Positions 8,153 to 51,264 of a DNA stretch of 64,000 nucleotides are shown here, piece after piece; the stretch's first letter is position 1; the number at the start of each line of letters is the position of its first letter. The notes below the pieces were generated by a model. The model had not been told where the DNA came from, ran no database searches, and was given only the letters and a program-made list of their open reading frames with translations. Location: sequence record PQ805430.1; one strand, given 5' to 3'. Made by a program: the position numbers and the translations under genes. The stretch comes from Escherichia phage EK8.

Positions 8153-8193
8153 TGACTGTCTCCAGTTAAAGTGGGGCCGAAGCCCCAGGGGGA

Positions 8194-12459: not shown

Positions 12460-12604
12460 TTTAATCTCCAGGGTTAAATTTAAGCCTATAGATAACCTGA
12501 TTTGGTATATAGGATCGTTTAGTCAGACTGTCTCAAATGACTGTCTTCAACATATAGGTTTAAAACTTACGACACATACTATGTAAGGTCTAAAACTGTA
12601 TGCT

Positions 12605-12635
12605 CAAAACTAAAAACCCCTCACAAGGAGGGGTT
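12605..12635 (-). terminator. rho-independent terminator candidate
   Basis: aacccctc-acaag-gaggggtt hairpin with T-rich tract on minus strand. Confidence 0.4.
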
Positions 12636-12875
12636 TCTATTGCCATGTTTATCGTTGATTACAGGATCTGGAATCCTGCGCGTCTCAACCCTAGTGGGTC
12701 AGTCGCCGATTTCACTTTTACGACCAGAGGATCGTCTGTATGAACTACATCTGATACATGGCGGTACAGATGCAGCAACGATAAGATAAACCAGATTAGC
12801 ATCAGGTATCCTCATCGTAAGGTGAATCACACTATGTAATTCACATTGGATTATATAACCATAATACAATGTAAA

Positions 12876-12912
12876 CTAAGAAAAAGTAGGACACCCTAAG
12901 ATGGGGTGTCCT
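12876..12912 (-). terminator. rho-independent terminator candidate
   Basis: 9-bp stem aggacaccc/gggtgtcct then ctttttc on minus strand, just after the 81-aa gene. Confidence 0.45.
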
Positions 12913-12975
12913 TTCAGAAAGTAAAAACTAAGTTATGCAGACGCAGAGCGTCATTCATTAAACGCACGGAGTGCG

Positions 12976-13221
12976 TCATTTAAGTTTAAAACGGAGCTTC
13001 TGGGTTCCACCCTGTTCATCGAATACGGACTGCACTTCCACTACACCCTCGTGATCCAGTACCAGTACCTTGTCAGCTTTATTGGTGAACTCACCCTCGA
13101 TTTCAATGACCTTCAAGCCTAACAGCTTCTTGGTTTTGAACTCGTTCAGCTTATCTTCGGTGGTATAGATGACTCTGGTTTGTTGTGTAATATGTTGATA
13201 ACCGCGAAATGGGTCGGCCAT
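12976..13221 (-). CDS. small protein, paralog-family member (81 aa)
   Basis: carries family motif TEDKLNEFKTKKLLGLKV. Confidence 0.5.
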   Translation of the reverse strand: MADPFRGYQHITQQTRVIYTTEDKLNEFKTKKLLGLKVIEIEGEFTNKADKVLVLDHEGVVEVQSVFDEQGGTQKLRFKLK

Positions 13222-13493
13222 TATTCCTCCAGGTATAGACGGATCAGCTTGTCCTCCCCGTCTTCGTAGACACTGACGCCAACCACGCCGAATACTGGCA
13301 GATTGATACGCATCCAGCCTTTCTCCAGCAGATCAGGAGTAATGCGGAACTCGGTCGGGTTAACTCCGGCCAGCATACTGGCCTTGACCGTCGAAACGAG
13401 AGAGGCGGGAACATTCAACCGGGCGACAGGCTTACCCGGTTGTGGCAGAGATTGCAGCAATTTCATAGTTACCTCGATTTGAAGGTGATGCAC
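13221..13493 (-). CDS. small protein, divergent paralog-family member (90 aa)
   Basis: weaker motif VKASMLAGVNPTEF. Confidence 0.45.
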   Translation of the reverse strand: MHHLQIEVTMKLLQSLPQPGKPVARLNVPASLVSTVKASMLAGVNPTEFRITPDLLEKGWMRINLPVFGVVGVSVYEDGEDKLIRLYLEE

Positions 13494-13714
13494 TTAAACG
13501 AGCCATAAACACTCTCATACTGGATTGAGTCAGTATCTATGGGCATTAGTATGCAAGGGAATGTACGGTTAACCTCATCGATCCAGGCATTGGGTACGAG
13601 TACCTCATGATCCTTTATACCGATGAGCATTTCAGTTCTGAGTTCATCCATGATATCGCCCGGCAACCGGACTTCTACCCTGGGATCTGAACCATTGGAT
13701 ATGAAGACAGCCAT
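13469..13714 (-). CDS. small protein, paralog-family member (81 aa)
   Basis: motif IMDELRTEMLIGIKD. Confidence 0.5.
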   Translation of the reverse strand: MAVFISNGSDPRVEVRLPGDIMDELRTEMLIGIKDHEVLVPNAWIDEVNRTFPCILMPIDTDSIQYESVYGSFKCITFKSR

Positions 13715-13722
13715 AGGATCTC

Positions 13723-13869
13723 TTATCGTTTATACCAGTCTTTGATTTTGCAAGTAGTACAAACTGAGAATAGTTTTATGTATTGATTCGCTGTACCACC
13801 AAATTTTCTTGCACGTTCCTCAGCAGAAGGAACAAGTACAATTTCTTTATTACACTTCGAACATTTCAT
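13723..13869 (-). CDS. small zinc-ribbon protein (48 aa, below ORF-track cut-off)
   Basis: hand translation MKCSKCNKEIVLVPSAEERARKFGGTANQYIKLFSVCTTCKIKDWYKR; CxxC..CxxC; GGAGA RBS 6 nt upstream. Confidence 0.4.
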   Translation of the reverse strand: MKCSKCNKEIVLVPSAEERARKFGGTANQYIKLFSVCTTCKIKDWYKR

Positions 13870-13875
13870 AGGATC

Positions 13876-13907
13876 TCCAAATGAAATAGCCACCCCGAAG
13901 GGGTGGC
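13876..13907 (-). terminator. rho-independent terminator candidate downstream of RNAP II genes
   Basis: gccacccc-gaa-ggggtggc hairpin then T-rich tract on minus strand. Confidence 0.45.
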
Positions 13908-13913
13908 TGGTGG

Positions 13914-14168
13914 TTATTTCGGATACTTCGGGTCATTTTCTTTAAGCCAGATAACATGGCGATTGAAGGTATTAACCAGACGGTTGTATTCACCACCTGT
14001 GGCGACATTAATCATATCAATGCCACATTCGAAGCTGCATGTTAGATTAGCAATCTGGATACTGGTCTTTCTGGCTTGTCGCTTATGCCACCAGATTTTA
14101 AGAAAGAGCATAGTTTGAGTTCCTGATCTTATCGCCCAGGTCGTTGCTGAGCTTCTCGTAGACACCAT
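13914..14168 (-). CDS. hypothetical protein (84 aa; doubtful)
   Basis: ORF overlaps RNAP large-subunit 3' end by 71 nt in another frame. Confidence 0.2.
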   Translation of the reverse strand: MVSTRSSATTWAIRSGTQTMLFLKIWWHKRQARKTSIQIANLTCSFECGIDMINVATGGEYNRLVNTFNRHVIWLKENDPKYPK

Positions 14169-15372
14169 CGGTGGTCTGATATAACTGGTTCATGAGCATA
14201 GCCAGCATGTCGCTATCAGCGAAGTCAGCCATGATCTCTTTGTACCAGTAACGGGTGATATCGCAGTTGTTTGCATGGCAACCAAACGCATCATGCACCG
14301 TGATAATCGGGAACGGTTTGTACGTCAGCATGTCATCAGTGATAGACAGCAGCTTGGTAACAATCCACTCCGGCAGGCACATAACGTTGCTCCAGGTCAG
14401 CAGTGGCAGGATGGACAGGTCAGCGATGTGAGCCTTTTCCATCAAAGCCAGAGCTTCAACCAGTTCAGCATGTACAGGCAGACGGTTAGCACCGTTGGCA
14501 TACATGATTTGAGCATTGGCCAGCATCTCATTCGCAGGGTGAACGATAGCCGGATCGTAGTTACAGCGACGTTCCATCCCACGCAGGAGATAGGCGTCAC
14601 AACCGTGAATGGTATTGGCAACGTTGGCACGGCCACGCTCAGTACCTTCGTTCACCTTGTATTGCAGCGTGAACGTAGCGTGGTCGAGTTCGTCTACTTC
14701 AATCCTGGTTTCCTTCGACTCCATGACTTTCATCACGGCTACGAAGCCATCCGGGAACACCAGAGTGTGATCCAGTGCGAACGGACGCCAGGACTCCAGC
14801 AGTTCATCCATTAACTGGAATGCACCCGGAGCGATGATCATCGCAGCGTTGTAGAACACGTCCAGCATTTCACCTTCACCGAATACACGCTTTGGTACGG
14901 CCTTAGAGCCATAGCCAGAGGTCATCACGGCTTGTTTCACGTCCTTACGTGGAACAGTGATGGTAGCGTGACCGGTTTCCAGCAGGAGTTTATTCATCTC
15001 TGCTGTGGTGTTGCTGTACGCATCCATACGGGAGCGAGGGTCAATCATGCCAGTGTTGTAGGCACCAGAGATGCAGCCCGTGAGGGCTGACATAATCTGG
15101 ATACCAGAGCAGCAGGCATCGAAGTGAACGATATGCCCAACAGGGATACCACGGCGAGCACGGTCAATGACCATTGCAGCCTTACGGAACAGGGCAGGTT
15201 CTTCTGCCTGATCCGCGATAGCTTCGAGGTTGTTGATGTTGTTCTGGATGAACTCGATACGAGTATCGAACAGTTCTTTATCCATACCAAAGTGGTTGGC
15301 AGCATCTATACAGAGGTATTCCCAGCCAGTGAACGTCTGGAACCCGGAACCGAAATTGATAGTCTTTTGCAT
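14098..15372 (-). CDS. T7-like single-subunit RNA polymerase, catalytic (large) subunit of split RNAP II
   Basis: motif A HFDACCSGIQ (T7 FDGSCSGIQ), motif B VMTSGYGSK, motif C VHDAFG (T7 HDSFG). Confidence 0.8.
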   Translation of the reverse strand: MQKTINFGSGFQTFTGWEYLCIDAANHFGMDKELFDTRIEFIQNNINNLEAIADQAEEPALFRKAAMVIDRARRGIPVGHIVHFDACCSGIQIMSALTGCISGAYNTGMIDPRSRMDAYSNTTAEMNKLLLETGHATITVPRKDVKQAVMTSGYGSKAVPKRVFGEGEMLDVFYNAAMIIAPGAFQLMDELLESWRPFALDHTLVFPDGFVAVMKVMESKETRIEVDELDHATFTLQYKVNEGTERGRANVANTIHGCDAYLLRGMERRCNYDPAIVHPANEMLANAQIMYANGANRLPVHAELVEALALMEKAHIADLSILPLLTWSNVMCLPEWIVTKLLSITDDMLTYKPFPIITVHDAFGCHANNCDITRYWYKEIMADFADSDMLAMLMNQLYQTTDGVYEKLSNDLGDKIRNSNYALS

Positions 15373-15382
15373 AAGTTAATCC

Positions 15383-16384
15383 TCATTTTCTGAATTTATC
15401 AGGTACACCAATTACCGGCTCTTGATCGGCCAGGTTAATCATTGCTTTTTTGAAGCTGGTGCCCTGTGGGGTGATATGGTAGCCACAAGCGTACATGCGC
15501 CCGCGTTTGTCTACCTTGTTGCTGATATAGAACCGGTTACCCTGGTTCACCATCAGGCTGTAGAAGTAGTAGGACTGCTCCTTATAGGATGCCCAGTTCT
15601 CCTTCTGTTTGCGGATCATATCCGCTATCTGCCAGTCACTGAGATCCTCATCAGACTCAATGCTATCCAGATCGTGAGTTGGTTCTTCCTCCACTGAGCA
15701 TAGGAACTCAACGTCCAGGGACAGAGGAACACGATTGCGTGAATTAAGTACATCAAGGCAGATGTTTCCGTCATGATGGTTGAACCCTCCACCCAGAATG
15801 AGGCTATCGCTCTTGTGGGTATAGTAGGCAGTTGAACGGTTATTCGTGAGCTTACGAGGCTCACAAACCAGTGGTGGTAAATAGCATGAATATTCAATGA
15901 AGTTGCTTAATTCTTCACTGAACTGAATGTTACTGATTATCTGGATTGGGCTGTTACGGTGATGCTTGTTCAGGTCGAACACGTCGGTTGTAGCGAGTAC
16001 AGCCAGCACCTCAGCGATGGTCTGCACGCTATCACGTTTGTCATCGAAGCCCAGACGGGAAGCCAGTTGACCGATGGCATTGACCAGAGGCGTTTCAGCC
16101 TGGAAGTAGGTCACACCAACGAAGATCTCTTTGACGAGATTCTCCAGGTCAAGCTGGGCTAAGTGATGCAGCCGGACAGCTTTGCTGTCGTAATACTGCT
16201 CACTCATCCACTGCTTCAATAACTCAACGCCCTGCTCCACTTCTGGCAGCAGGTTCTCGGTGCCCTCAAATAACTCCTTACGGATGTATCCGTCGATATG
16301 ACGGCGATTGAACTGACGTTCGTTTACGAGTTGTAACTCTTTTGGTGGCAACCACTTATGTTCCATAATTCCCTCTAATCTCAA
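15383..16384 (-). CDS. T7-like RNA polymerase N-terminal (small) subunit of split RNAP II
   Basis: C-terminus DKRGRMYACGYHITPQGTSFKK resembles T7 RNAP DWRGRVYA...PQG segment that precedes motif A; immediately upstream of the catalytic subunit. Confidence 0.7.
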   Translation of the reverse strand: MRLEGIMEHKWLPPKELQLVNERQFNRRHIDGYIRKELFEGTENLLPEVEQGVELLKQWMSEQYYDSKAVRLHHLAQLDLENLVKEIFVGVTYFQAETPLVNAIGQLASRLGFDDKRDSVQTIAEVLAVLATTDVFDLNKHHRNSPIQIISNIQFSEELSNFIEYSCYLPPLVCEPRKLTNNRSTAYYTHKSDSLILGGGFNHHDGNICLDVLNSRNRVPLSLDVEFLCSVEEEPTHDLDSIESDEDLSDWQIADMIRKQKENWASYKEQSYYFYSLMVNQGNRFYISNKVDKRGRMYACGYHITPQGTSFKKAMINLADQEPVIGVPDKFRK

Positions 16385-16411
16385 ATAAAGAGGCCAACCC
16401 TAAGGTTGGCC
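16381..16411 (-). terminator. rho-independent terminator candidate just upstream of RNAP II genes
   Basis: ggccaacc-ctaa-ggttggcc hairpin then tctttatttg on minus strand. Confidence 0.45.
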
Positions 16412-16417
16412 GATTGG

Positions 16418-16717
16418 TTACGCGAGTTCGAACTTTGCACCTTCCGGCGTGGCTTCGCCATACGACAGGACGATGCGGGATGCCAGCGCTTTCAGTTGTT
16501 TCTCAACGTCAGCCTCAGACTTACAGTCTTTCAGCATGTCGATGATCATCCCTTCCAGGGGATGAGACTCACGCAGGCCAATACCCTGACCACCCAGACG
16601 TTTCAGACCTTGTTTGGTCATCACGCCGATGTTCAGATAGCCAGCGATTTTGTTGCGGTTAGCATCAGCAGCAGGAGCGGAGTTGTTAGAACCAGAAGAA
16701 CGACGATTGAAAGCCAT
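16418..16717 (-). CDS. hypothetical early protein (99 aa)
   Basis: ORF in early block. Confidence 0.5.
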   Translation of the reverse strand: MAFNRRSSGSNNSAPAADANRNKIAGYLNIGVMTKQGLKRLGGQGIGLRESHPLEGMIIDMLKDCKSEADVEKQLKALASRIVLSYGEATPEGAKFELA

Positions 16718-16781
16718 GATATATACCTCGAAGAATGAGTAGATGAATGATATTTAAAGGATTGGGGGGTTTTCCCCTCTG

Positions 16782-16796
16782 AGGCGCTATGCGCCT
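16782..16796 (-). promoter_or_regulatory. hairpin element aggcgc-TAT-gcgcct (candidate hairpin promoter)
   Basis: GC stem with 3-nt loop, 66 bp upstream of gene start at 16717; shares cgcTATgcg core with two other copies. Confidence 0.3.
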
Positions 16797-16797
16797 T

Positions 16798-17079
16798 CTA
16801 ACAGATGATGAGGCAGCTAACAGCGTCCCTCCAGGCTGCATAGAGCACCGGATTGCTGTTGACCTCATCATTGTATTGGGACAGGTCTTCGAACGCTTCA
16901 CGACCCAGGTGGGCAGCAGCAATCTCGACCTGAATTTCCAGCGATATGTCTTCCATCACAAGCTGTGACAGACCTTTACGAAACAGGAACAATGCCAGAG
17001 CACGCATCTCCCCGTCTTTCCATGCACGGGAAGCCCAACGAAGGTTGGTTTGAGCGTGGTCAATATTCATATTTGGCAT
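16798..17079 (-). CDS. hypothetical early protein (93 aa)
   Basis: ORF in early block. Confidence 0.5.
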   Translation of the reverse strand: MPNMNIDHAQTNLRWASRAWKDGEMRALALFLFRKGLSQLVMEDISLEIQVEIAAAHLGREAFEDLSQYNDEVNSNPVLYAAWRDAVSCLIIC

Positions 17080-17146
17080 ACAGATAGTCCTTAAGGGTGA
17101 GCGAGGATCCCAGCAGCCCTGGAATCCCCGGTAGTTATTCTGTTCG

Positions 17147-17161
17147 ACGCGCTATGCGCGT
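17147..17161 (-). promoter_or_regulatory. hairpin element acgcgc-TAT-gcgcgt (candidate hairpin promoter)
   Basis: same cgcTATgcg core, 69 bp upstream of gene start at 17079. Confidence 0.3.
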
Positions 17162-17445
17162 TTTCCTTCCAGAGTGACGTAGGACATTTCAACCGTGATA
17201 GTGGAGTAGACACCCAGCAAACACTTTGTGGCTATGGCATAACGCTCATCCCTACGCAGGGTAAATGCGTAGTAAACGTTATCCTGTTTGAACTGGTAGC
17301 TCTCGTTGATATCCAGCTTCGAGGGTGTATAGGCATAGATGCTCACATCAGCTAACACCACGCCTTCAATGGCATCGGTTATCTGGTTTATATCCCAGTC
17401 GATCACTGCGGTTAAGTCTTTGGATTTATACGTATGCTCGGCCAT
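17152..17445 (-). CDS. hypothetical early protein (97 aa)
   Basis: ORF in early block. Confidence 0.5.
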   Translation of the reverse strand: MAEHTYKSKDLTAVIDWDINQITDAIEGVVLADVSIYAYTPSKLDINESYQFKQDNVYYAFTLRRDERYAIATKCLLGVYSTITVEMSYVTLEGKRA

Positions 17446-17759
17446 TACATGCCCTTAATAGTTGCCTCCACCATTGTTACCTCTGGCTTCTTGAGCATGT
17501 GATGCGTCACGTAGACAGCCAGGATGACAAACTTGTTGTCGATACCCGGTATGGTAACGATGGTCTGAATGGTTCCACCCAGGTTATTCGGGCCTAAACT
17601 GACGTTGGCCAGGTTAACCGGGAAGGTGTCCTTGTACACGAATTTGGGGCTTATCAGCCGCATTGTACGAAGATGATCATACTGCTCAGCACTCAGCCAG
17701 CCTATGGCTTCACCATCGTTTACCTTACGGATTTCGTACTCACGTACCTTAGTAGTCAC
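17445..17759 (-). CDS. small protein, paralog-family member (104 aa)
   Basis: motif LSAEQYDHLRTMRLIS. Confidence 0.5.
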   Translation of the reverse strand: MTTKVREYEIRKVNDGEAIGWLSAEQYDHLRTMRLISPKFVYKDTFPVNLANVSLGPNNLGGTIQTIVTIPGIDNKFVILAVYVTHHMLKKPEVTMVEATIKGM

Positions 17760-18121
17760 TCGGCTTCTCCTGTAAGTTTCAGCGGTGGTTTATATTTCAG
17801 AAACCAGCGTGAGATGATACGGCGATTAACCTGTGGAATTAACTCACCACGGTCTACAGCACGTCCACGCCAGTCTTCCGGGCAGTCCATAAATATGGGC
17901 TTAGGCGGATCGCCTCCGTCATACCAGTACACGATGGACGGTAGTTCGAACACCGTATCGGGAGTTATCAACGTAGTGGTACGCATGGCATCAAACTCTT
18001 CCTGAGTTATCTTGGCCTCAACGATGAGGCTAATACCATTCGGGCTTCGTTGTAATATATCCCGTAAGTAAATTGATTTTGACATTAAAAGGGTATCTCC
18101 TTGGTGAAGTTGAATACCCAC
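17756..18121 (-). CDS. small protein, paralog-family member (121 aa)
   Basis: motif ITQEEFDAMRTTTLITP. Confidence 0.5.
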   Translation of the reverse strand: MGIQLHQGDTLLMSKSIYLRDILQRSPNGISLIVEAKITQEEFDAMRTTTLITPDTVFELPSIVYWYDGGDPPKPIFMDCPEDWRGRAVDRGELIPQVNRRIISRWFLKYKPPLKLTGEAE

Positions 18122-18378
18122 GTCATCGGTTGAATAACATCTTCGATACGTTCGTATTCTTCACTGGTTAAAGTATCAGGACGACCTTCGAGATATAAAT
18201 CTTCGGTCACATTCAGATAGCTGGATACACCAAAGTCAGATTTGAATGTATCTACCACTTTACGGTATACAGCGCCTTCACCTAATAAGGTTAAAGCAGT
18301 ACGTATAGCATCTACTTCATTCTGGCTTAACTGACATACCACACGAGAGAACCCTCTAGATCTTAGTTCGTATCCCAT
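18085..18378 (-). CDS. small protein, paralog-family member (97 aa)
   Basis: motif LSQNEVDAIRTALTLLGEG. Confidence 0.5.
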   Translation of the reverse strand: MGYELRSRGFSRVVCQLSQNEVDAIRTALTLLGEGAVYRKVVDTFKSDFGVSSYLNVTEDLYLEGRPDTLTSEEYERIEDVIQPMTWVFNFTKEIPF

Positions 18379-18701
18379 GGTGTATTAAACCTCGCTATTA
18401 GTTGACCGTTCTTTTCAAAGTACAGGAAATTAATACGGACTGAATCCAGATATAGAAGGCTGCTATTACCGGACACTAATAAATGCGGTACAGCCAGTTC
18501 TTCTTTTTTAAAAATAGGCACATCCAGGATGCAGTCCTCCACACCTAATAAGTGTTGAGTACGCATGTTTAATATCAGATCATCATTAATCTCGAAATAA
18601 CGATGACCATTATCATTAACGCTGGTGGCACGACAATAACGTTTCATGCACCCTCCACTCGAACAAAGTGATACATTTCCTGCACCGAAGGTGTAGGCCA
18701 T
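18363..18701 (-). CDS. small protein, paralog-family member (112 aa)
   Basis: motif INDDLILNMRTQHLLGVED. Confidence 0.5.
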   Translation of the reverse strand: MAYTFGAGNVSLCSSGGCMKRYCRATSVNDNGHRYFEINDDLILNMRTQHLLGVEDCILDVPIFKKEELAVPHLLVSGNSSLLYLDSVRINFLYFEKNGQLIARFNTPWDTN

Positions 18702-18955
18702 TCGAACTGGGAATTAGAGCATGGCTCTAATGTAATACGTAATTCAGTACCAGGTATCTGATATTGCATATATACGTTGGTCTGGATTAAGTGAATTTGT
18801 TCGGGTTTTAATATCGTCAATGAATCACGATAATTTATCATTCGATTGCCCAACAAATAGTTGGTACGAATAACCCCAATATCCTCTTCACTTAATTTAC
18901 GTGAGATCAGATAACCATGCTGTATGGCAGCAAGTATTATCTCGTTCACTTGCAC
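18644..18955 (-). CDS. small protein, paralog-family member (103 aa)
   Basis: motif LSEEDIGVIRTNYLLGNR. Confidence 0.5.
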   Translation of the reverse strand: MQVNEIILAAIQHGYLISRKLSEEDIGVIRTNYLLGNRMINYRDSLTILKPEQIHLIQTNVYMQYQIPGTELRITLEPCSNSQFEWPTPSVQEMYHFVRVEGA

Positions 18956-19605
18956 TCCTTATAACAGTAGGCAACGATTTCAACATCGACCTCTTTACGC
19001 CGGGCAACCATATCTTCATGCTCTTGAATACGAGCACGACCATACGGTGACAGCCAGTCATCAGGATCAGCTTTAGCGTAACGGGCTTCGATACAGCCAC
19101 GACGCCACTTGATCAAATAGCGATGAGCAGCCAGATATGACTTGAAGAACTGAGCACGATAAACGCACTCTTCATCAAACTCTCTGGCTTCATCACCCAT
19201 TACACGGTTGGAGATAAACTTATCGGTAAGGAACTTACCGGTGCCAACCTCACGCAGGAAATACATGGTCTTGAATTGGGTATCACCCCCACGATATTCA
19301 TGCAGTCGCAACATCGTGATTTCCATATCCTCACGTTGACGTGTGGGTACAGGAATAGGTTTACCCGGATAAGTCCAGTAATAGCTGTGGTATTCATCGC
19401 CATCCCAGTCTTCTTCACGAGGGATCTGACCTTGCAGCCAGATGGTGAGATAGATTTTGGCATGGCGTAATTCCGGGAATACACGCGGATATGCTAACCG
19501 TGGATCAATGGGTTCAACCCATGAACCACCACGCATACGACTGGACTTGGGTTTAGGCAGAAACTCCTTACGTCGTTTAATGGCATACACATGCTGAGTT
19601 AACAT
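18946..19605 (-). CDS. hypothetical early protein (219 aa)
   Basis: ORF in early block. Confidence 0.5.
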   Translation of the reverse strand: MLTQHVYAIKRRKEFLPKPKSSRMRGGSWVEPIDPRLAYPRVFPELRHAKIYLTIWLQGQIPREEDWDGDEYHSYYWTYPGKPIPVPTRQREDMEITMLRLHEYRGGDTQFKTMYFLREVGTGKFLTDKFISNRVMGDEAREFDEECVYRAQFFKSYLAAHRYLIKWRRGCIEARYAKADPDDWLSPYGRARIQEHEDMVARRKEVDVEIVAYCYKECK

Positions 19606-19844
19606 TAACGAAACCTCATTTGTGTTACAGGTTCAATGTGGAATTGCCAGTGGTTATTACCCAGGTATTCCACGGAATAGTAATTACCCATATGGTGGGT
19701 TTTATCCTTACCCATATGGTTAATACTTACAGCCGGTGCATCAATGACATTAATACCCAGTAGTTTGAATATACGCATTTGATCCATCATGGCTTTAGTT
19801 AGCCAGATGCCTTTACCGGTCTTACTACATCTGAGCTTTTGCAT
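19605..19844 (-). CDS. small protein, paralog-family member (79 aa)
   Basis: motif LTKAMMDQMRIFKLLGINV. Confidence 0.45.
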   Translation of the reverse strand: MQKLRCSKTGKGIWLTKAMMDQMRIFKLLGINVIDAPAVSINHMGKDKTHHMGNYYSVEYLGNNHWQFHIEPVTQMRFR

Positions 19845-20115
19845 AGGCTTCCTCTACTAATAAACGTAGAGCGTGCATAGCCTGATTACAGGTTTCACCC
19901 TCTTTGGTGATGTGGATAATGTCAGCCGGTGTACCGTCTTCCAGGGTTTTACCAATATCCGCATACAGAATGTAATTACCACGGCCATCGGATTCCATAG
20001 ACAGCTTTACGTCTTTCTCTTTGAAATAACGCTCATCATCTTCGTCGATAGCGTTAATTTCTGTATTGGTTCGATTACCGAAAGGACGGGTATAGATTAA
20101 GCAATTAATTGGCAT
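19825..20115 (-). CDS. hypothetical early protein (96 aa)
   Basis: ORF in early block. Confidence 0.45.
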   Translation of the reverse strand: MPINCLIYTRPFGNRTNTEINAIDEDDERYFKEKDVKLSMESDGRGNYILYADIGKTLEDGTPADIIHITKEGETCNQAMHALRLLVEEAYAKAQM

Positions 20116-20237
20116 AAGATTTACCTTTTAACCATGCAGCTTTATAGATATCCCATAAGTCTATCTCAATAGCTTTAGGGCCATAATTAGCAGTGAGCCA
20201 CATTCTGTAATCACTGCGGCATTGAATGAGTTCTTGT

Positions 20238-20486
20238 TCAGTCACGGAATAATTGCTCCATATCGGTTAACAATTCGTATTTAAGGCTGACCTGCACTTC
20301 CATTGGAATGGGTTGAGGTGTCACGCCTAACATAAGCTGGGTTCGATGCTGACTTATAAAGTCCTCATCAATAATTTTGGTAATGAGTTGAGTTATATCT
20401 AACTCCACTTCACCATCTTTAAGGTAATACCTTAAGATAATTGGTTTAAGTTTACTCATACGATTAGTCCAGGACGGGAAACTCAT
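20238..20486 (-). CDS. small protein, paralog-family member (82 aa)
   Basis: motif IDEDFISQHRTQLMLGVTP. Confidence 0.5.
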   Translation of the reverse strand: MSFPSWTNRMSKLKPIILRYYLKDGEVELDITQLITKIIDEDFISQHRTQLMLGVTPQPIPMEVQVSLKYELLTDMEQLFRD

Positions 20487-20505
20487 AAATATGGCCGGAG
20501 GCCAT

Positions 20506-20533
20506 AAAAAATAAGATAAGCCCCGAAGGGCTT
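20506..20533 (-). terminator. rho-independent terminator candidate
   Basis: aagccc-cgaa-gggctt hairpin then atcttatttttt on minus strand. Confidence 0.45.
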
Positions 20534-20702
20534 ATTTAGATTTAAACAAAGATATGGGATAACCAATCATAAATATCACAAAGCCCATTACGAGAATGAA
20601 GGCAGTGAATACCAGTTCAGCAATAAGCATGGCAATGGCAAACACAAACGGCAGCAGGCCAGTGAAGTAAAGTACGACCATTACGATCAGGAATGTGATC
20701 AT
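20532..20702 (-). CDS. small membrane protein (56 aa, below ORF-track cut-off)
   Basis: hand translation MITFLIVMVVLYFTGLLPFVFAIAMLIAELVFTAFILVMGFVIFMIGYPISLFKSK; ATGA overlap with upstream gene stop. Confidence 0.35.
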   Translation of the reverse strand: MITFLIVMVVLYFTGLLPFVFAIAMLIAELVFTAFILVMGFVIFMIGYPISLFKSK

Positions 20703-21091
20703 TCAAATGTTACCTTTTTCCAATACTGCATATTGATATAACCACCCTTACGAATATGTTTATCGATACGGTTAAGCGTATGCTCCACCTGAGCTTTAAG
20801 TTCTGGCTTGCAGCCGTCACGGTACTCAGCGGAATGCGCGAGGTAATAATCCTCGCCATAGATCGTTATCTCGATCCGATTGATGTAATACTGCTGTCCC
20901 AGGTGCGTCTGCATCAGACGACGAGCAATACGAGGGAATGTCAATGCGCGAGCATGTTCACGCTCTAAACGCATTTCGAAGCCCGCAGCACGGGCTTTAA
21001 CGATTTCGTCATGTACCATTAAATGTGATTGCATAATATGTCCCCAGTCCCGAAGCGATGATGAACAACCATACAGCGAGAATAATGGCAA
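20699..21091 (-). CDS. hypothetical early protein (130 aa; true start probably an internal Met)
   Basis: ORF; annotated 5' end overlaps upstream gene. Confidence 0.45.
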   Translation of the reverse strand: MPLFSLYGCSSSLRDWGHIMQSHLMVHDEIVKARAAGFEMRLEREHARALTFPRIARRLMQTHLGQQYYINRIEITIYGEDYYLAHSAEYRDGCKPELKAQVEHTLNRIDKHIRKGGYINMQYWKKVTFE

Positions 21092-21224
21092 TAATGCCTA
21101 TCTCCAGTGCATGGTTAGGTTTGGTTCCGAACATGCGAGCACGTTCTTCCTCATGCCGAATACCCCAATAGAGCATCGGCACAACGATGATAGTGAACAA
21201 CGCAAAGCCTAAGAGGTAACCCAT
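21009..21224 (-). CDS. small membrane protein (71 aa, start re-assigned to internal ATG)
   Basis: GAGGA RBS 6 nt before ATG at 21224; two hydrophobic helices; ORF-track start 21299 adds an implausible Cys-rich leader. Confidence 0.4.
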   Translation of the reverse strand: MGYLLGFALFTIIVVPMLYWGIRHEEERARMFGTKPNHALEIGIIAIILAVWLFIIASGLGTYYAITFNGT

Positions 21225-21358
21225 ACTTAGTCCTCGTACTGATTCATGCTTACCAGACGGACAGCAGCGAAGGTTGCTACTACGGATACAGCAGCCCATA
21301 CGAGCAGACCGGTTAAAATAGTCATAATTAATACCTCTGGTTTAAATGGAATCACCCG

Positions 21359-21371
21359 ACTCGCTATGCGA
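21359..21371 (-). promoter_or_regulatory. hairpin element ctcgc-TAT-gcgag (candidate hairpin promoter)
   Basis: same cgcTATgcg core, in spacer upstream of small membrane-protein genes. Confidence 0.3.
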
Positions 21372-21387
21372 GCCAGGTTTTGATTAT

Positions 21388-22011
21388 TTATGCACGGATG
21401 ACAAGTTGCATGTCTGGTACAGTCAAAGCAGCGTTCGTGTCCTGCACGTAGACTGCGTTATGTGGGTCACCCTCTTCCAGTGTCTTCTGTAACTTTTGAC
21501 GACCACCATACGCATATCCCTGGGCCATATAGAACAGAGTACCATCAGGTAGGTCACCAAACCGCTCCACACGCGGTAAATCGCTTGCACCTACATCAAC
21601 TACAGGCAGATTGAGTTCAGTCGCTCTGTGAGCGATACAGGCGCTTTTAGAGGGATTGACCATCTCGCTACGCTCAATGGTCGCTTCGCTGCACTTCATG
21701 CAATTACAAGCATCACCACATACAGATAAGTCAGTAAGTGGTTTGATTGGACGACAGAACTCAATAACATCTGACCAGCCATCTACAGGCTCATTATCAC
21801 CGTGGAACAGTGTGATGTAGTGGAAGTCAGATTCACGCTGTCCTAACAGCCATGCGTATACAGATGCTTTATCTTCAAACTCTTTCTCTGTCGAGTGAGT
21901 TGCATCAAAGGTCAGATAGTCCAGTACGAATAACGTAGTCATAGTATGTCTCCAATAAGTTAAGTGTATTACTTCACTTAAAGTGCTATGCACTACTACC
22001 GGTCGTAACAC
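21388..22011 (-). CDS. hypothetical early protein with Cys cluster (207 aa)
   Basis: ORF; CGDACNCMKC motif. Confidence 0.45.
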   Translation of the reverse strand: MLRPVVVHSTLSEVIHLTYWRHTMTTLFVLDYLTFDATHSTEKEFEDKASVYAWLLGQRESDFHYITLFHGDNEPVDGWSDVIEFCRPIKPLTDLSVCGDACNCMKCSEATIERSEMVNPSKSACIAHRATELNLPVVDVGASDLPRVERFGDLPDGTLFYMAQGYAYGGRQKLQKTLEEGDPHNAVYVQDTNAALTVPDMQLVIRA

Positions 22012-22038
22012 TACGGTACTACGTACCTACGTGTTACT

Positions 22039-22090
22039 GACTAACCAATACTTCGTACTACGCTTCGCTACGTACTCGTATTGGTTAGTC
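22039..22090. repeat. perfect 13-bp inverted repeat gactaaccaatac / gtattggttagtc with 26-bp spacer
   Basis: read directly at 22039..22051 and 22078..22090. Confidence 0.8.
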
Positions 22091-22118
22091 TTACATCCCT
22101 AGTTATGTATACACATAC

Positions 22119-22259
22119 TAATAGTAAGGTTATTAGATATAAGGTAGATATGAGTTATAGATATAGGATAGGTATAGGTATAGAGATAGTAGTTGATAGG
22201 GTATAGGTAGAGATAAGTGATATAGATATAGATAAAGTAGTAGTAAGAGTAAGTAGTAA
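22119..22259. repeat. cytosine-free microsatellite-like tract (GTA/TAG/ATA units)
   Basis: 141 bp with no C on plus strand; only 4 C in 22119..22320; units taggta, gatatag, gtagtaa. Confidence 0.8.
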
Positions 22260-22520
22260 CAAAGTAGTAAGTAAGTAGAGATAGTAGTAACAGGTAGATA
22301 CTAAACATAAGTAAGTAGTGTTTTACTCAGTAAATACATCCTAATCTCTGTCAACCTTTTCCACTAATATAAATTTCCGATAAGGGTTATCGATAAAAGT
22401 GGTATAGGAAACTTACTGTATGATTTCTGACCGTCATACCTAGCGCGAGTAAAAGCTGTAAAGTTTTGGTAACTTATAGCGCGCCTTACTGTCTCAGTGG
22501 TGAGTTGTGTAATGTGTAAT

Positions 22521-22557
22521 TGTGTAGAAAAGAAATAGCCTACTCCGAAGAGTAGGC
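22521..22557 (-). terminator. rho-independent terminator after the first early gene
   Basis: 8-bp stem gcctactc/gagtaggc, loop cgaa, then ctatttcttttct on minus strand. Confidence 0.5.
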
Positions 22558-22564
22558 ATTGATG

Positions 22565-22819
22565 TTATGCAGTAGCAGTAGCTGATGCAGCCAGAGCTTT
22601 GACTTGGTTATCAAGCTCAGACTTAGCTGCGTTGTAAATCATCTGGTCTTTGATTTCGATGAGTTCACCGAAGCGTTTAGCTTTGTTCTCTGCTACCTTA
22701 GCCAGCTCATCACCAGCAGTAGCCAGACGATTGACTGCGGTTGCAGTTGTGGTGACAGTGGATACGGTTGCAACTACAGCACCAGTGAGAGCAGCGAACA
22801 GACCTTGTGGTTGGGACAT
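22565..22819 (-). CDS. hypothetical small protein (84 aa), apparently monocistronic
   Basis: ORF followed immediately by a terminator. Confidence 0.5.
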   Translation of the reverse strand: MSQPQGLFAALTGAVVATVSTVTTTATAVNRLATAGDELAKVAENKAKRFGELIEIKDQMIYNAAKSELDNQVKALAASATATA

Positions 22820-22991
22820 GAGTAATACTCCATAGCTATTGGATTAATGTAAGGGATGAAGGCATCTCACCTTCAAGACTCTGAAGCCTCCCACATCGCA
22901 GAGCTACGATTGTGGGTGCATACATGTGATTAATCTCAAGCAGACAATGTATGAAAACACTGAATGAGATGGATACGTATATCCATATGAT

Positions 22992-23002
22992 GGCCTATGG
23001 CC
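22992..23002 (-). promoter_or_regulatory. hairpin element ggcc-TAT-ggcc (weaker relative of the cgcTATgcg hairpins)
   Basis: 4-bp GC stem, TAT loop, about 175 bp upstream of gene start 22819. Confidence 0.2.
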
Positions 23003-23133
23003 TGAATTGTGTAAGGCGTAGTAAGAATCCTTTTTCAGCCAGCACTATGGAGGGGGTATCCACCCAAAGCTACAGCCAGAGTAGTAAGTTGAGCACTCGT
23101 ACCTAAATTAAAAAATTTTATAAAAGTTTTCCC

Positions 23134-23334
23134 TTAAACTTTTTTATCTCTATCCAGCGGAGCTATCCTGTTTACCCACCCTTCAAACTTATCCCTGAGT
23201 TTATCCATACCGTTCCAAATACTTTCAAAGATATAAGCAAGCACTAACGCTATACCACCCACCAACCATATCACTAACCAAACTGGCAGCAGAGAGATAC
23301 GGATAGCCTTGCTCTTGGTACTCATGCGATACAT
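23134..23334 (-). CDS. small membrane protein (66 aa)
   Basis: one strong TM helix; GAGG RBS; flanked by AT-rich sequence. Confidence 0.4.
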   Translation of the reverse strand: MYRMSTKSKAIRISLLPVWLVIWLVGGIALVLAYIFESIWNGMDKLRDKFEGWVNRIAPLDRDKKV

Positions 23335-23362
23335 AAAATTTTCCTCATAAAATTTTTAAAAA

Positions 23363-23391
23363 TTGCCCAACCTTTCGACCCTATTTATACT
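23363..23391 (+). promoter_or_regulatory. sigma70-like promoter candidate for the late operon
   Basis: -35 ttgccc (23363..23368), 17-bp spacer, -10 tatact (23386..23391), about 30 bp before the first late gene. Confidence 0.3.
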
Positions 23392-23422
23392 CTGGCTTAG
23401 AACCTATAGGGAGACTATATCA

Positions 23423-24109
23423 ATGGCATTGCTCGATTTAAATACACTCAAAGCTGCGTTGCCTGACAACATCCGTAAGACTATCACTGATGAAGTGTTG
23501 AATGGGATTAACGCTGCTGTGGCTGACCCCCAGTTTTACGAGTATTACCGTAACAACCTGTTGAGCTATGGCCATGTGCTGAAAGAAGGGAAGTTTACGG
23601 TTAAGCAGTACAGTGCAGCAGTCCGGTATGTGTCGTATAAGCTGATGGGCTTAACGAACCAGGAAGCGTGGATGAAGACCTTCCCGGACAAGTATGCGTA
23701 CTTCGCTCAGAAGGGCACCAGTGCAAAAGACATTTCAAGTTACGTCCATGCGTACCATAATACTAAACTGGTAAACCTGGTAATGGAGCAGTCGCTTGTT
23801 CCTGTGCATGTGGTAGGCCGTGACCTGTTCTGGAAAGCTCTCAACGTTCAGGCTGAGTTAATGGTCAGTGCTACCAGTGAAAAGGTACGCAGCGATGCTG
23901 CGAACAGCGTACTGAACACGTTGCGCCCGCCTGAGACTAAGAAGATGGAACTGGATATCAACCACAAGGACGATGGTACGCTGGAGGCGTTGCGTGCTGC
24001 TACGCAGGCTCTGGTAGACCAGCAATCGAATGCGATTGCTAGTGGGACAGTAACAGCAGGGCAGGTGGCCGCGTACCGTGTCATTGAAGCGGAGAAACTC
24101 GATGAGTAA
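23423..24109 (+). CDS. putative terminase small subunit (229 aa)
   Basis: first gene of late operon, directly upstream of large terminase; GGGAGA RBS 8 nt before ATG at 23423 (ORF-track start 23363 is a TTG). Confidence 0.35.
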   Translation: MALLDLNTLKAALPDNIRKTITDEVLNGINAAVADPQFYEYYRNNLLSYGHVLKEGKFTVKQYSAAVRYVSYKLMGLTNQEAWMKTFPDKYAYFAQKGTSAKDISSYVHAYHNTKLVNLVMEQSLVPVHVVGRDLFWKALNVQAELMVSATSEKVRSDAANSVLNTLRPPETKKMELDINHKDDGTLEALRAATQALVDQQSNAIASGTVTAGQVAAYRVIEAEKLDE

Positions 24110-24272
24110 GCCAGAACTGATAGTGACACTGTTTGGGATAGGTGCGTTTTTACTGGGTGCATTCATGGCCTGGCTTAAGCGTTGTCGGCATTCATATTAC
24201 TTTGTACGCACGGCCACTGATGGAAAAAAGGTGCTGTGCTGTGCGAAATGCGGGAAGGTTAAAGTCCAATGA
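24102..24272 (+). CDS. small membrane protein with C-terminal Cys pairs (56 aa)
   Basis: ATGA overlap with upstream stop; GGAGA RBS; hydrophobic helix. Confidence 0.35.
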   Translation: MSKPELIVTLFGIGAFLLGAFMAWLKRCRHSYYFVRTATDGKKVLCCAKCGKVKVQ

Positions 24273-24412
24273 TTACCTTATGGCCCGATTTCAAAGATCA
24301 ATCCCTGGCTTTCAACGAAGAAGAAGGTAAGTGGGAATTTAATAGCCGCCTCTACAGACGTAGGGGCCAGGCCGAAAAAGCAGCCTGGAAAGCATGGAAT
24401 AAGATGCGATGA
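24269..24412 (+). CDS. small protein (47 aa, below ORF-track cut-off)
   Basis: hand translation MITLWPDFKDQSLAFNEEEGKWEFNSRLYRRRGQAEKAAWKAWNKMR; overlaps both neighbours by ATGA. Confidence 0.3.
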   Translation: MITLWPDFKDQSLAFNEEEGKWEFNSRLYRRRGQAEKAAWKAWNKMR

Positions 24413-26022
24413 AAGACCTGGTAATGGGAGAACAGATCACCGCCCGCACCGTGGATAGCTGGTTGGCAGACGTTGACTATAACGACGATCCGACTTACCA
24501 GCCGTCCCGGTTCGCGCTGGAATTTGTGCTGTTCATCAAGATGGTGAACGGCGGGCAGGGGGAGGAAAACAAATCCCCCGTCCTGCACTACAAAATGTTG
24601 GATCAGGTTGTGTCCGGCGATACCCGTATCGCCAACATGATTCACCGTGGTGCCGCTAAGACGACCATCATGGGTGAATACCTGTTCCTGTATATCGGCG
24701 TTTATGGGGAGATCCCCGGCTTCGGTAAAATTGAACTGGCCTTGTACGTGTCGGACTCCATCGATAACGGCGTGAAGAACATGCGTAAGAACCTGGAGTT
24801 CCGCTATGAGAACAGCCCGTTCTTGCAGCAGTACATCCCGGTAGCGAAGTTCACTGATATCCGCTGGGAGTTCCAGAACGTCGATGGTAATAAGTTCGTG
24901 GTCAAGGGCTACGGTGCGAAGACCGGCGTTCGTGGTACGAAAGAAATGGGTAAACGTCCCCGTCTGGCGGTACTCGATGACCTGGTTTCGGATGAGGACG
25001 CACGTTCTCCGACTGTTATCGCGGCCATCGAAGATACCATCTACAAGGCAGTGGAATACGCCCTCCACCCTGAACGTAACATGATGATCTGGTCGGGTAC
25101 GCCGTTTAACGCATCCGATCCACTGTACAAAGCAGTCGAGTCCGGTGCCTGGTCGGTTAACGTCTACCCGGTGTGCGAGCGTTTCCCCTGCACGAAAGAA
25201 GATTTCCGGGGTAGCTGGCCTGACCGTTTCCCGTATGAGTACGTCAAACGCCAGTACGATAAGGCGTTACAGGCCGGAATGATTTCGATGTTTAACCAGG
25301 AGCTTATGCTTCGCATTATGTCCGACGAGGATCGCCTGATCGCAGATGGTGATATTCGTTGGTACAAAATCGACCTGGTTAAAAATAACCCGACCAACTT
25401 CAACTTCTACATCACCACTGACTTTGCGACCGGCGAGAAGCAGGCGAATGACTTCTCGGTTATCTCCGTGTGGGCTTATAACAACAACGGTGACTGGTTC
25501 TGGGTAGACGGGATCTGTAAACGACAGGATATGGCCAAGAACATTGATGACCTCTTCCGGCTCAATGCAAAATACAGGCCAATCTCCGTGGGTGTTGAAG
25601 TCTCCGGGCAACAGCAGGGCTTTATCTCAATCATCCAGGAGCGTATGGGCCGAACCAACAACTGGTTCACTCTGGCTTCAAACGAGAACTCAAACCAGCC
25701 TGGTATCAGGCCGAATACGAACAAGCTGCAACGCTTTAACGTAGTCGTGCCCTGGTTTAAGGCCGGTAAGATGTATTTCCCGATTGAGCACAAACATGAA
25801 GCCCCGCTCATGGAAATGATGGATGAACTTAAGCTGGCCTCAGTCGGAGGGTTTAAGTCCAAGCACGATGACGCCGTTGATACCATCTCCATGCTCGCCA
25901 GCATGAAACCGTTCAAGCCGAGCGAAGAAAGCACGCAGACAACCTGGGAGGATGGTAATATTTGGGATCAGAAAGTTGATGATGGTTGGGGCGATAGTGG
26001 CCTTAACTCCTACCTACCGTGA
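24409..26022 (+). CDS. terL: terminase large subunit
   Basis: 537 aa; Walker A-like HRGAAKTT, Walker B LAVLDD, C-terminal nuclease-like region with acidic residues. Confidence 0.8.
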   Translation: MKDLVMGEQITARTVDSWLADVDYNDDPTYQPSRFALEFVLFIKMVNGGQGEENKSPVLHYKMLDQVVSGDTRIANMIHRGAAKTTIMGEYLFLYIGVYGEIPGFGKIELALYVSDSIDNGVKNMRKNLEFRYENSPFLQQYIPVAKFTDIRWEFQNVDGNKFVVKGYGAKTGVRGTKEMGKRPRLAVLDDLVSDEDARSPTVIAAIEDTIYKAVEYALHPERNMMIWSGTPFNASDPLYKAVESGAWSVNVYPVCERFPCTKEDFRGSWPDRFPYEYVKRQYDKALQAGMISMFNQELMLRIMSDEDRLIADGDIRWYKIDLVKNNPTNFNFYITTDFATGEKQANDFSVISVWAYNNNGDWFWVDGICKRQDMAKNIDDLFRLNAKYRPISVGVEVSGQQQGFISIIQERMGRTNNWFTLASNENSNQPGIRPNTNKLQRFNVVVPWFKAGKMYFPIEHKHEAPLMEMMDELKLASVGGFKSKHDDAVDTISMLASMKPFKPSEESTQTTWEDGNIWDQKVDDGWGDSGLNSYLP

Positions 26023-26030
26023 GGTGAGGC

Positions 26031-26939
26031 ATGAAATTAAGACTGTCCGACGTATTGGATAACCTTCTGGTCGGAGAGTTCGCACAAACAGGCTGGGCAC
26101 AAGATGGTGAGTTTTCCGTAGCGACGGTGAACAAGATTATCATCCTGCTCAATGCTGCATTGGGCGATATCTCTTCTCGGTTCTGGATTAAGAGGAAAGA
26201 AGTCTTCCTCCAGACCTGCCGGGGCCAGACGCTGTACGTGATCGATAACTCGGTCGCAAGTGCCCAGATGAAATTGCAGGGTGGCAACTGTAATTTAACC
26301 ACCAGCACTGGTGAAGTCTGGGAAGATGATCTCCAGCAGATCTATGAAGTCTATGACTGCAACGGGAATGAGATGCCTCTCGCGCACGACGTAGGTTCGC
26401 CGCACGCCAGTGCAAGGCGAACCTGCAAGTGCGGGGCACCGATTAGCCCGGAAGAACTGGATGAGATGTGTTACAAATGCCGTAACGCCCGGTTCAGTAA
26501 AACCGTGGATAAACCAGGTACGATTGTTACCCGGCACCATCCGTTTGGTGTACCGAACATTCGTCCGGGCGACTCGTGCTCTATCCAGCTTGCAGCGTAT
26601 AACACGATCCGTGTACCGGATAACCTGACTCCGCAGAAACTGCGTGTCGTGTACCGGGCAACGGCGAAGCGTGTTAAGAAAATTGAAAACAACGGTGTCC
26701 CATATGACCCAACTCGAATTTTTATTGATGTGCCTTACGAGTATCTCCAGGCGATTCTTTTTTATATTGCTTCTCGTAAGTTCAACTCTAATAAATCCGG
26801 GGTACAGGGTGGGATGCACGAAGGGAACAACTACTACCAAAAATACATTGCAGCCTGTACACTACTGCAAGACCAGGGAGCCGGTGTCGAACCGGTAGGG
26901 AACTCAGGAAGTAAGTTCGAACAGAACGGATTTGTATAA
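26031..26939 (+). CDS. hypothetical protein with zinc-ribbon-like Cys cluster (302 aa)
   Basis: ORF; CKCGAP...CYKC. Confidence 0.5.
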   Translation: MKLRLSDVLDNLLVGEFAQTGWAQDGEFSVATVNKIIILLNAALGDISSRFWIKRKEVFLQTCRGQTLYVIDNSVASAQMKLQGGNCNLTTSTGEVWEDDLQQIYEVYDCNGNEMPLAHDVGSPHASARRTCKCGAPISPEELDEMCYKCRNARFSKTVDKPGTIVTRHHPFGVPNIRPGDSCSIQLAAYNTIRVPDNLTPQKLRVVYRATAKRVKKIENNGVPYDPTRIFIDVPYEYLQAILFYIASRKFNSNKSGVQGGMHEGNNYYQKYIAACTLLQDQGAGVEPVGNSGSKFEQNGFV

Positions 26940-26940
26940 T

Positions 26941-26968
26941 AAAAAGCCCCTCATTGAGGGGCTTAATT
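26941..26968. terminator. bidirectional rho-independent terminator candidate
   Basis: agcccctc-att-gaggggct flanked by A-run upstream and T-rich downstream; sits between convergent genes. Confidence 0.5.
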
Positions 26969-26970
26969 AT

Positions 26971-27417
26971 TTAAATGCTACAGGCACCGCTTTCACACTT
27001 GTTGTTCTCAGCAAACTCAGCCAGTGCAGCTTTGGTCTGAATTTCTTCAAACAGACGCTGTTTCAGGCGATAACCTTCCACCAGCCAGATCTTCTCAATG
27101 GCGTTTTCACGGGCAACATCGCAGCCAATGGAGAAGTTAAAGTTCTCCGGGCTGGCGCAGGCAGAATGACCAATCACGGTGAAGCCGTTTTCCAGAGTCA
27201 GTACGCAGATGGTCACCAGCTTATGGGACTCCAGCGTTTCCTGGGTGGTATCCGGGGAATCACTGTTCTGGTTTGCACCGGAGATACCTTCGGCAGCGGT
27301 GAAGAAGACTTCGGATTTAATCAGGGACTTGATGTAATCCGGGGTAAGACGCGGAGCTTTATCGGCACCAGCAGCAACAATTTTCTGTTCGAGATCAGAC
27401 ATTGGGTTTCTCTTCAT
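26971..27417 (-). CDS. hypothetical protein (148 aa; start may be the Met at 27402)
   Basis: ORF in minus-strand island. Confidence 0.45.
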   Translation of the reverse strand: MKRNPMSDLEQKIVAAGADKAPRLTPDYIKSLIKSEVFFTAAEGISGANQNSDSPDTTQETLESHKLVTICVLTLENGFTVIGHSACASPENFNFSIGCDVARENAIEKIWLVEGYRLKQRLFEEIQTKAALAEFAENNKCESGACSI

Positions 27418-27535
27418 AGAGTGGTTTCATGGAATAGCCGAACATGACTGCATTGTCATACTCGACACTGTTGGCAAATACCAGGTACTTCTTGCCACGG
27501 CGATCCGTGACTTCATAAGCATAAGGTATCGGCAT
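27395..27535 (-). CDS. small protein (46 aa; tentative)
   Basis: hand translation MPIPYAYEVTDRRGKKYLVFANSVEYDNAVMFGYSMKPLYEEKPNV; stop overlaps downstream ATG. Confidence 0.25.
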   Translation of the reverse strand: MPIPYAYEVTDRRGKKYLVFANSVEYDNAVMFGYSMKPLYEEKPNV

Positions 27536-27704
27536 AATTTGTACCTTTTCTTACCCGTGAGAGTATACGTCTGCACATGGATTTAGTGATCGGGGAGCTA
27601 TGCTCAAAGAACATTAGCTTATTACACATTGTTACCACAGCGAGACAGAATACTCCCTGCTCATCTGGTTTAGTCCGGTAATAACGTTTAATTTTCATAG
27701 GTAT

Positions 27705-27737
27705 CCTTAATGGAAAAAGCCCCTCCAAAGAGGGGCT
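27705..27737 (-). terminator. rho-independent terminator candidate
   Basis: agcccctc-caaa-gaggggct then ttttccatt on minus strand. Confidence 0.45.
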
Positions 27738-51232: not shown

Positions 51233-51239
51233 AAAATAA

Positions 51240-51264
51240 AGCCTCCCTATTCGGGAGGCTTTTT
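51240..51264. terminator. strong bidirectional rho-independent terminator after vRNAP
   Basis: agcctccc-tattc-gggaggct with A-run before and T-run after. Confidence 0.6.

Follow-up and report, generated by a model that had tools for sequence, protein, structure and literature searches.

In the N4-like phage LUZ7, ONT (Oxford Nanopore Technologies)-cappable-seq located 61 termination sites, of which 14 were predicted to be intrinsic terminators, and four bidirectional terminator regions, three of which lie between convergent genes; a subset of the terminators is active in vivo (PMC9163698). Here we analysed three hairpins in a 64,000-nucleotide stretch of DNA from Escherichia phage EK8 (PQ805430.1; the window, in whose positions all coordinates are given), an N4-like podophage of the Schitoviridae near Cbunavirus. 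A sequence-only reading of this stretch had described the hairpins as terminator-like, had noticed that they share the stem CCCCTC/GAGGGG, and had suggested that reuse of the stem may reflect a common origin or recognition by a factor rather than intrinsic termination alone. We conclude that the observation is real, that the special meaning attached to it is not supported, and that the biology is already known: each of the three hairpins is very probably an ordinary intrinsic (Rho-independent type) terminator, independent of the other two. Like the intrinsic terminators of LUZ7, they consist of a GC-rich hairpin and a U-tract in an intergenic position past a stop codon, and site 2 lies between convergent genes, as do three of the four LUZ7 bidirectional regions. 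LUZ7 belongs to a different genus, however, and its 3' ends were mapped experimentally, whereas the terminators of the window are predicted from sequence.

All three hairpins were found where that reading had placed them, and their loops differ as it had said; with the terminators predicted around them they are as follows.

12614-12636: site 1 hairpin, plus-strand letters AAACCCCTC.acaag.GAGGGGTTT
12606..12636, minus strand: site 1 predicted intrinsic terminator, RNA AAACCCCUC.CUUGU.GAGGGGUUU then UUAGUUUU
26944-26964: site 2 hairpin, AAGCCCCTC.att.GAGGGGCTT
26941..26970, both strands: site 2 predicted bidirectional terminator, between the convergent stops 26939 (plus) and 26971 (minus)
27718-27737: site 3 hairpin, plus-strand letters AGCCCCTC.caaa.GAGGGGCT
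27714..27737, minus strand: site 3 predicted intrinsic terminator, RNA AGCCCCUC.UUUG.GAGGGGCU then UUUUCC

The claim that one 8-bp stem recurs at all three sites held for sites 2 and 3, where AGCCCCTC/GAGGGGCT is identical, and had to be narrowed to the inner 6 bp for site 1, whose arm reads AACCCCTC and not AGCCCCTC; since the two differ at the second position, only CCCCTC/GAGGGG is common to all three. As an intrinsic terminator we accepted a GC-rich stem of about 5-14 bp with a loop of 3-8 nt and a U-tract directly 3' on the transcribed strand. The stems are perfect over 9, 9 and 8 bp at sites 1, 2 and 3, each contains 5-6 G-C pairs, and the loops measure 5, 3 and 4 nt, so that all three fall within these dimensions. 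The minus-strand RNA folds at -18.0 kcal/mol (z = -2.9) at site 1, -17.1 kcal/mol (z = -4.2) at site 2 and -22.4 kcal/mol (z = -2.8) at site 3, and the plus strand of site 2 at -18.6 kcal/mol (z = -5.5). Each hairpin is followed on the minus strand by a clean T-run that provides the U-tract (TTTTTAG, TTTTTAT and TTTTTCC at sites 1, 2 and 3; the tails read TTTTTAGTTTT at site 1 and TTTTTATTAT at site 2), and on the plus strand a T-rich tail is found at site 2 only, where it is interrupted (TTAATTATTT). A terminator scan listed all three sites on the minus strand and site 2 on both.

The positions are those expected of terminators, all three sites being intergenic and downstream of a co-directional gene. 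Site 1, about 1.5 kb downstream of the RNAPII genes, occupies a 516-bp gap that separates two minus-strand genes (13221..12976 and 12459..11866); its hairpin is 23 nt past the stop (12659) of a 47-amino-acid (47-aa) open reading frame (ORF). Site 2 is 5 nt past the plus-strand stop at 26939 and 7 nt past the minus-strand stop at 26971, and for site 3 the distances are 100 nt from the stop (27837) of the 81-aa gene upstream of it and 20 nt to the start codon that follows. Because the window is the reverse complement of the conventional CB1 map, its early and middle genes are on the minus strand. The description as terminator-like hairpins therefore stands, with a GC-rich stem, a T-run on the strand that encodes the adjacent genes, an intergenic position past a stop and a structure that is conserved in relatives. 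We propose that all three hairpins act on minus-strand transcripts and that site 2 would also serve the convergent plus-strand late operon; the nascent RNA would fold into a GC-rich hairpin of 6-9 bp ahead of the U-tract, destabilising the elongation complex and releasing the polymerase.

Whether the sequence of the stem matters, or only its structure, is decided by comparison of orthologous sites, which we made across about 15 relatives: the Cbunavirus genomes CB1, CB4, Nepra, phiA41, Possum and Kc283, Enterobacter phage SABI, and contigs from IMG/VR. The closest annotated relatives of the window are the Cbunavirus phages of Pectobacterium and Kosakonia together with SABI, at about 78-83% nucleotide identity, and IMG/VR contig 3300038674_000113 is about 97% identical to it at the protein level. 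Site 2 orthologues were gathered by flank pattern and from the GenBank relatives, a related-locus search with the gp67-like protein having given only 3 loci. At sites 2 and 3 the Cbunavirus phages and SABI carry unannotated terminators in identical positions, with the same flanks and a hairpin with a T-run, and their stems differ from those of the window by compensatory changes.

Site 3 was present in 15 of the 15 genomes and contigs of its set, with near-invariant flanks. Its stem is AGCCCCTC/GAGGGGCT (CCCCTC/GAGGGG, the TC state) in the window, Kc283 and three IMG/VR contigs, and AGCCCCAC/GTGGGGCT (CCCCAC/GTGGGG, the AC state) in phiA41, CB1, CB4, Nepra, SABI and four IMG/VR contigs; in Possum there is a single mismatch. 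Of the cells in the alignment 97.9% are paired, and covariation between U-A and A-U is seen at one pair (AU:3/UA:3). The loop reads UUCG on the minus strand in most relatives, in keeping with an RNA that has the minus-strand sequence. Site 2 orthologues always consist of a hairpin and a T-run immediately past the gp67-like stop; the hairpin is GCCCCTC.att/aat.GAGGGGC in the window, SABI and four contigs, whereas in the Pectobacterium phages and in Kc283 it is GCCCCC.ttaatc.GGGGGC or has ttact as its loop. As a separate observation, the central base of the site 2 loop (26953-26955) flips between A and T among otherwise near-identical relatives. Site 1 has a counterpart in the Klebsiella N4-like phages P184 and Tribble, GGCCCACT.caatgt.AGTGGGCT followed by TTTTT, in which the core is CCCACT/AGTGGG. 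Pairing is thus kept by compensatory change at sites 1, 2 and 3, and likewise at a fourth terminator, at the junction following the virion RNA polymerase (vRNAP) gene (51238, described below); we observed the structure, and not the letters, being conserved. Selection at these terminators appears to act on structure and not on stem sequence. The comparison yields a clean negative, in that identity of terminator stems within one genome is not a motif unless orthologous sites have been checked first, and it leaves as by-products an unannotated terminator map for this N4-like clade and compensatory changes backing three or four of its terminators.

The same orthologues bear on a common origin, in which a terminator would have been copied between sites by duplication or gene conversion, sites 2 and 3 being the likeliest pair. 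These two are only 770 bp apart and are identical over 8 bp (AGCCCCTC/GAGGGGCT) and in their A/T runs; the TC state of site 3 occurs in three lineages that are otherwise different in sequence, which would fit patchy transfer, and some unrelated IMG/VR contigs carry two copies of the hairpin 487 nt apart. The similarity stops at the stem, however: outside it only the A/T runs are alike, the loops (acaag, att, caaa) and flanks being otherwise unrelated, and copies are neither present or absent together nor of the same sequence in related genomes. Kc283 has TC at site 3 and CCCCC at site 2, so that it offers no local donor at site 2, and SABI combines TC at site 2 with AC at site 3. Each of the four possible combinations of states at these sites is represented among the relatives, and the two sites therefore vary independently; the coincidence of stems seen in the window is confined to three genomes. 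Copying is not needed in any case, because a change of one base pair turns either site 3 state into the other. Site 1 differs in its closing pair and in its loop, and it lies in a small-ORF cassette that is missing from most close relatives; it thus has a separate history, and its stem is not conserved either. We therefore regard a common origin as unlikely.

The stem is also far from peculiar to these sites, as seen at the vRNAP junction used for comparison.

51238..51262, both strands: predicted bidirectional terminator, AAAGCCTCCC.tattc.GGGAGGCTTT, between the vRNAP gene (plus strand, 3696 aa) and a 59-aa gene (minus strand)

In CB1 the corresponding terminator separates gp76 from the vRNAP gene; it reads AAAGCCCCTC.gatt.GAGGGGCTTT and carries the CCCCTC/GAGGGG stem; the flanks are about 90% identical to those of the window, two pair changes are compensated, and the window stem is of the GCCTCCC type. 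CB1 itself uses AAGCCCAC/GTGGGCTT at two independent sites. In IMG/VR, AGCCCCTC-N3-6-GAGGGGCT was found in at least 120 diverse, unrelated viral contigs, and the AC/GT variant likewise in at least 120, from very diverse contigs; both counts are lower bounds, and both stems are common. Among the TC matches listed, 81 of 98 unique sites have a T-run on at least one side, and the commonest loops are UCCG and UUCG. Two copies of the AGCCCCTC...GAGGGGCT hairpin lie 487 nt apart in three contigs (L140, L160 and L179) and 463 nt apart in a fourth (L141); the four may be one prophage family in which a gene is bracketed by identical terminators.

Recognition by a factor would mean that a protein of the phage or of its host, for instance an antiterminator, a nuclease or some RNA-binding protein, reads CCCCUC/GAGGGG on RNA or extruded DNA and that the hairpins are co-regulated. 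This would account for a core common to three hairpins while the hexamer is otherwise depleted in the window (12 against 25 expected), and the LUZ7 terminators show stage-dependent readthrough, suggesting antitermination factors in N4-like phages (PMC9163698). We nevertheless consider it highly improbable: at all three orthologous positions the pairing is conserved and the sequence is not, the states of the sites are independent among relatives, loops and flanks differ, and the stem recurs at a different CB1 terminator and in the unrelated viral contigs just described. An Rfam scan of the whole window returned two tRNAs only and matched no family at the hairpins. The sequence-only suggestion of a common origin or a factor is accordingly not supported in either of its forms. 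A narrower version applies to the window and to contigs 3300038674_000113 and 3300045988_036666, where the GAGGGGCU-bearing hairpins of sites 2 and 3, with the related site 1, might be recognised together by a lineage-specific RNA-binding or antitermination factor, or might provide microhomology that guides insertion and deletion of small cassettes beside terminators; both of the small ORFs specific to the window (47 aa and 61 aa) abut these hairpins. We consider this version very unlikely.

If the hairpins are ordinary terminators, CCCCTC/GAGGGG would not be a recognition element. The stems of the group would instead be drawn from a small space, in which an A-run and GCC lead into a 5' arm rich in pyrimidines, mostly C, matched by a 3' arm rich in G and followed by a T-run, and because stems would drift within this space by compensatory substitution, identical stems would be expected to arise repeatedly at unrelated sites. 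The genome-wide count that the sequence-only reading had called for did show an excess, with CCCCTC-N3-12-GAGGGG occurring 3 times against 0.03 expected in whole-sequence shuffles, but this excess shows only that the sites are hairpins. The hexamer CCCCTC is about two-fold under-represented (12 on both strands against 25 ± 5 expected in dinucleotide shuffles); 6 of the 12 lie in the three hairpins and 6 elsewhere in the window. What matters is how probable it is that 3 of about 16 strong terminator-like hairpins in the window share a 6-mer, their 5' arms being 45% C. With a first-order model trained on the other 13 arms, the probability that at least 3 of 16 arms share some 6-mer is 0.40; a first-order Markov null trained on all 16 arms gave P = 0.60 and was dropped as circular. 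AAGCCC is also common to three arms of the window. Taken with the value of 0.04 from a composition-only model, discussed next, this makes the sharing of the stem at most mildly unusual and not clearly above chance.

Several points weigh against the conclusion that these are independent, ordinary intrinsic terminators. Under the composition-only model, sharing at the observed level is mildly unlikely (P = 0.04). The T-A state of site 3 is found again and again, in lineages whose other sequence resembles SABI, Kc283 or the window; this requires either recombination or double substitutions that happened more than once. N4-like phages use three RNA polymerases, which bears on the enzyme that reads each site and on its response to hairpins. 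Finally, termination itself is deduced from the anatomy of the sites together with established knowledge of intrinsic terminators. The class I terminator T-phi of phage T7 is a lead only: its 3' arm ends ...GAGGGGTTTTTTG and pairs with AACCCCTT in a stem that is much longer and interrupted, the base of which is nearly that of site 1, AACCCCTC...GAGGGGTTTTT. Such a resemblance would mark this stem as a common way of building terminators, also for RNA polymerases of the T7 type.

N4-like phages also use hairpin promoters that are recognised by the vRNAP (PMC3715699), and these short DNA hairpins are truly reused through recognition by a factor. The group has such hairpins in the window.

16782-16796, minus strand: vRNAP-type hairpin, ...CGC-ATA-GCG... 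with a 3-nt loop
17147-17161, minus strand: vRNAP-type hairpin of the same kind
21354-21378, minus strand: vRNAP-type hairpin of the same kind (an example of the class is AGGCGC.ata.GCGCCT)

These match three early vRNAP promoter hairpins annotated in CB1 (GTGC.ata.GCAC, GGCC.ata.GGCC). The reading of the CCCCTC hairpins as promoters of this type was judged by a stem of 4-7 bp, a 3-nt loop with a central purine, the group consensus, and a position upstream of early genes near the left genome end. The 3-nt loop of site 2 is in its favour; the loops of sites 1 and 3 are 5 and 4 nt. The class of the group is GC-ATA-GC with a 3-nt loop, which none of the three sites matches, and on this difference in hairpin class we rejected the reading. 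None of the sites is upstream of an early gene either, site 1 being downstream of the RNAPII genes and sites 2 and 3 beside the late gp67/terminase operon, and on both strands site 2 faces antisense sequence only. The CCCCTC hairpins thus fail every defining feature tested, and the chance that they are vRNAP-type promoters and not terminators is close to negligible.

The separate history of site 1 is seen in its surroundings, where the window has about 270 extra nt (12606-12880, minus strand) comprising an AT-rich leader, a ribosome-binding site (RBS), the 47-aa ORF and site 1, situated between a conserved terminator (12888-12912) and a conserved block (about 12545-12600).

12659..12802, minus strand: 47-aa ORF with a hydrophobic N-terminus (MLIWFILSLLHLYRHVSD...), forming a small cassette with site 1
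12888..12912, minus strand: conserved upstream predicted terminator, AGGACACCC.CAUCUUA.GGGUGUCCU and a U-run, its stem unlike that of site 1

The 47-aa ORF had no Pfam or PHROG hit. The cassette of this ORF and site 1 was absent from phiA41, CB1, Kc283, Possum, SABI and IMG/VR contigs L082 and L083, and in relatives without it the upstream terminator (window 12912..12888) runs straight into the conserved block (window about 12600..12545). That terminator stands at the end of the block of genes coming after the RNAPII genes; the orthologous stem reads GGACTCCC...GGGAGTCC in phiA41, CB1, Kc283 and Possum and GGCTATCC...GGATAGCC in SABI. In P184 and Tribble a homologous cassette occupies the same place, its ORF beginning MKQFMWFILSLLFLYRLVSE against MLIWFILSLLHLYRHVSD in the window. 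We had at first taken site 1 for a fresh insertion, and revised this because the homologous cassette in the Klebsiella phages makes loss in Cbunavirus equally possible. A small ORF with its own terminator, lying between conserved neighbours and patchy among relatives, has the pattern of a moron. The leader contains TATAAT, and a scan for sigma-70 promoters listed no good match. Polymorphism of small-ORF cassettes beside terminators is a further by-product of the comparison. Both ends of the indel fall just past a terminator T-run that leads into TAGTTT. The block catacagttttagaccttacatagtatgtgtcgtaagttttaaacctatatgt (12545-12600, minus strand), immediately downstream of site 1, is conserved across the Cbunavirus relatives despite the adjacent indel, and may be a middle promoter or a regulatory region; within the window, only one weak second match exists for a 17-nt piece of it.

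Elsewhere in the window, many terminator hairpins carry a UUCG tetraloop, for example those at 8172, 20516, 22538, 53123 and 55351 on the minus strand and at 35742 on the plus strand. For those of the early/middle region, at positions up to about 23,000, it is the minus strand that shows UUCG, and the genes of that region are encoded on this strand. Most of these hairpins have a C-rich 5' arm and a G-rich 3' arm.

The genes around sites 2 and 3 are the following.

26031..26939, plus strand: N4 gp67-like virion structural protein gene, by synteny with annotated phiA41 and CB1
26971..27417, minus strand: 148-aa gene of the Phage_gp49_66 family (PF13876; E = 1.5e-27)
27837..28082, minus strand: 81-aa gene (DUF7740, phrog_6022), upstream of site 3

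The late gp69/terminase/gp67 operon finishes with the gp67-like gene, the end of which is 5 nt ahead of site 2; tRNA-Gln and tRNA-Asn precede the 81-aa DUF7740 gene. Directly after the site 3 terminator is a 61-aa ORF with a good RBS (27513-27698, minus strand), which none of the relatives examined showed in this place and which had no Pfam or PHROG match. Directly after the terminator the 97% relative (L002), SABI and Kc283 have an ORF of 42-46 aa, and the Pectobacterium phages have the gp48/49-like gene. Kc283 has about 165 extra unannotated nt between the site 2 hairpin and the gp48/49-like stop (L087 1229-1420), where other relatives have nothing. The PF13876 gp48/49-like gene and a terminator were also considered as a mobile unit, an idea that was rejected on finding the downstream sequence unrelated across 32 diverse loci; only in the 97% relative did a CCCCTC hairpin directly follow the gene. 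The 148-aa protein itself (N4 Gp49 / Sf6 gene 66) has 301 relatives on very diverse IMG/VR contigs of 4-116 kb, and its gene travels widely among phages.

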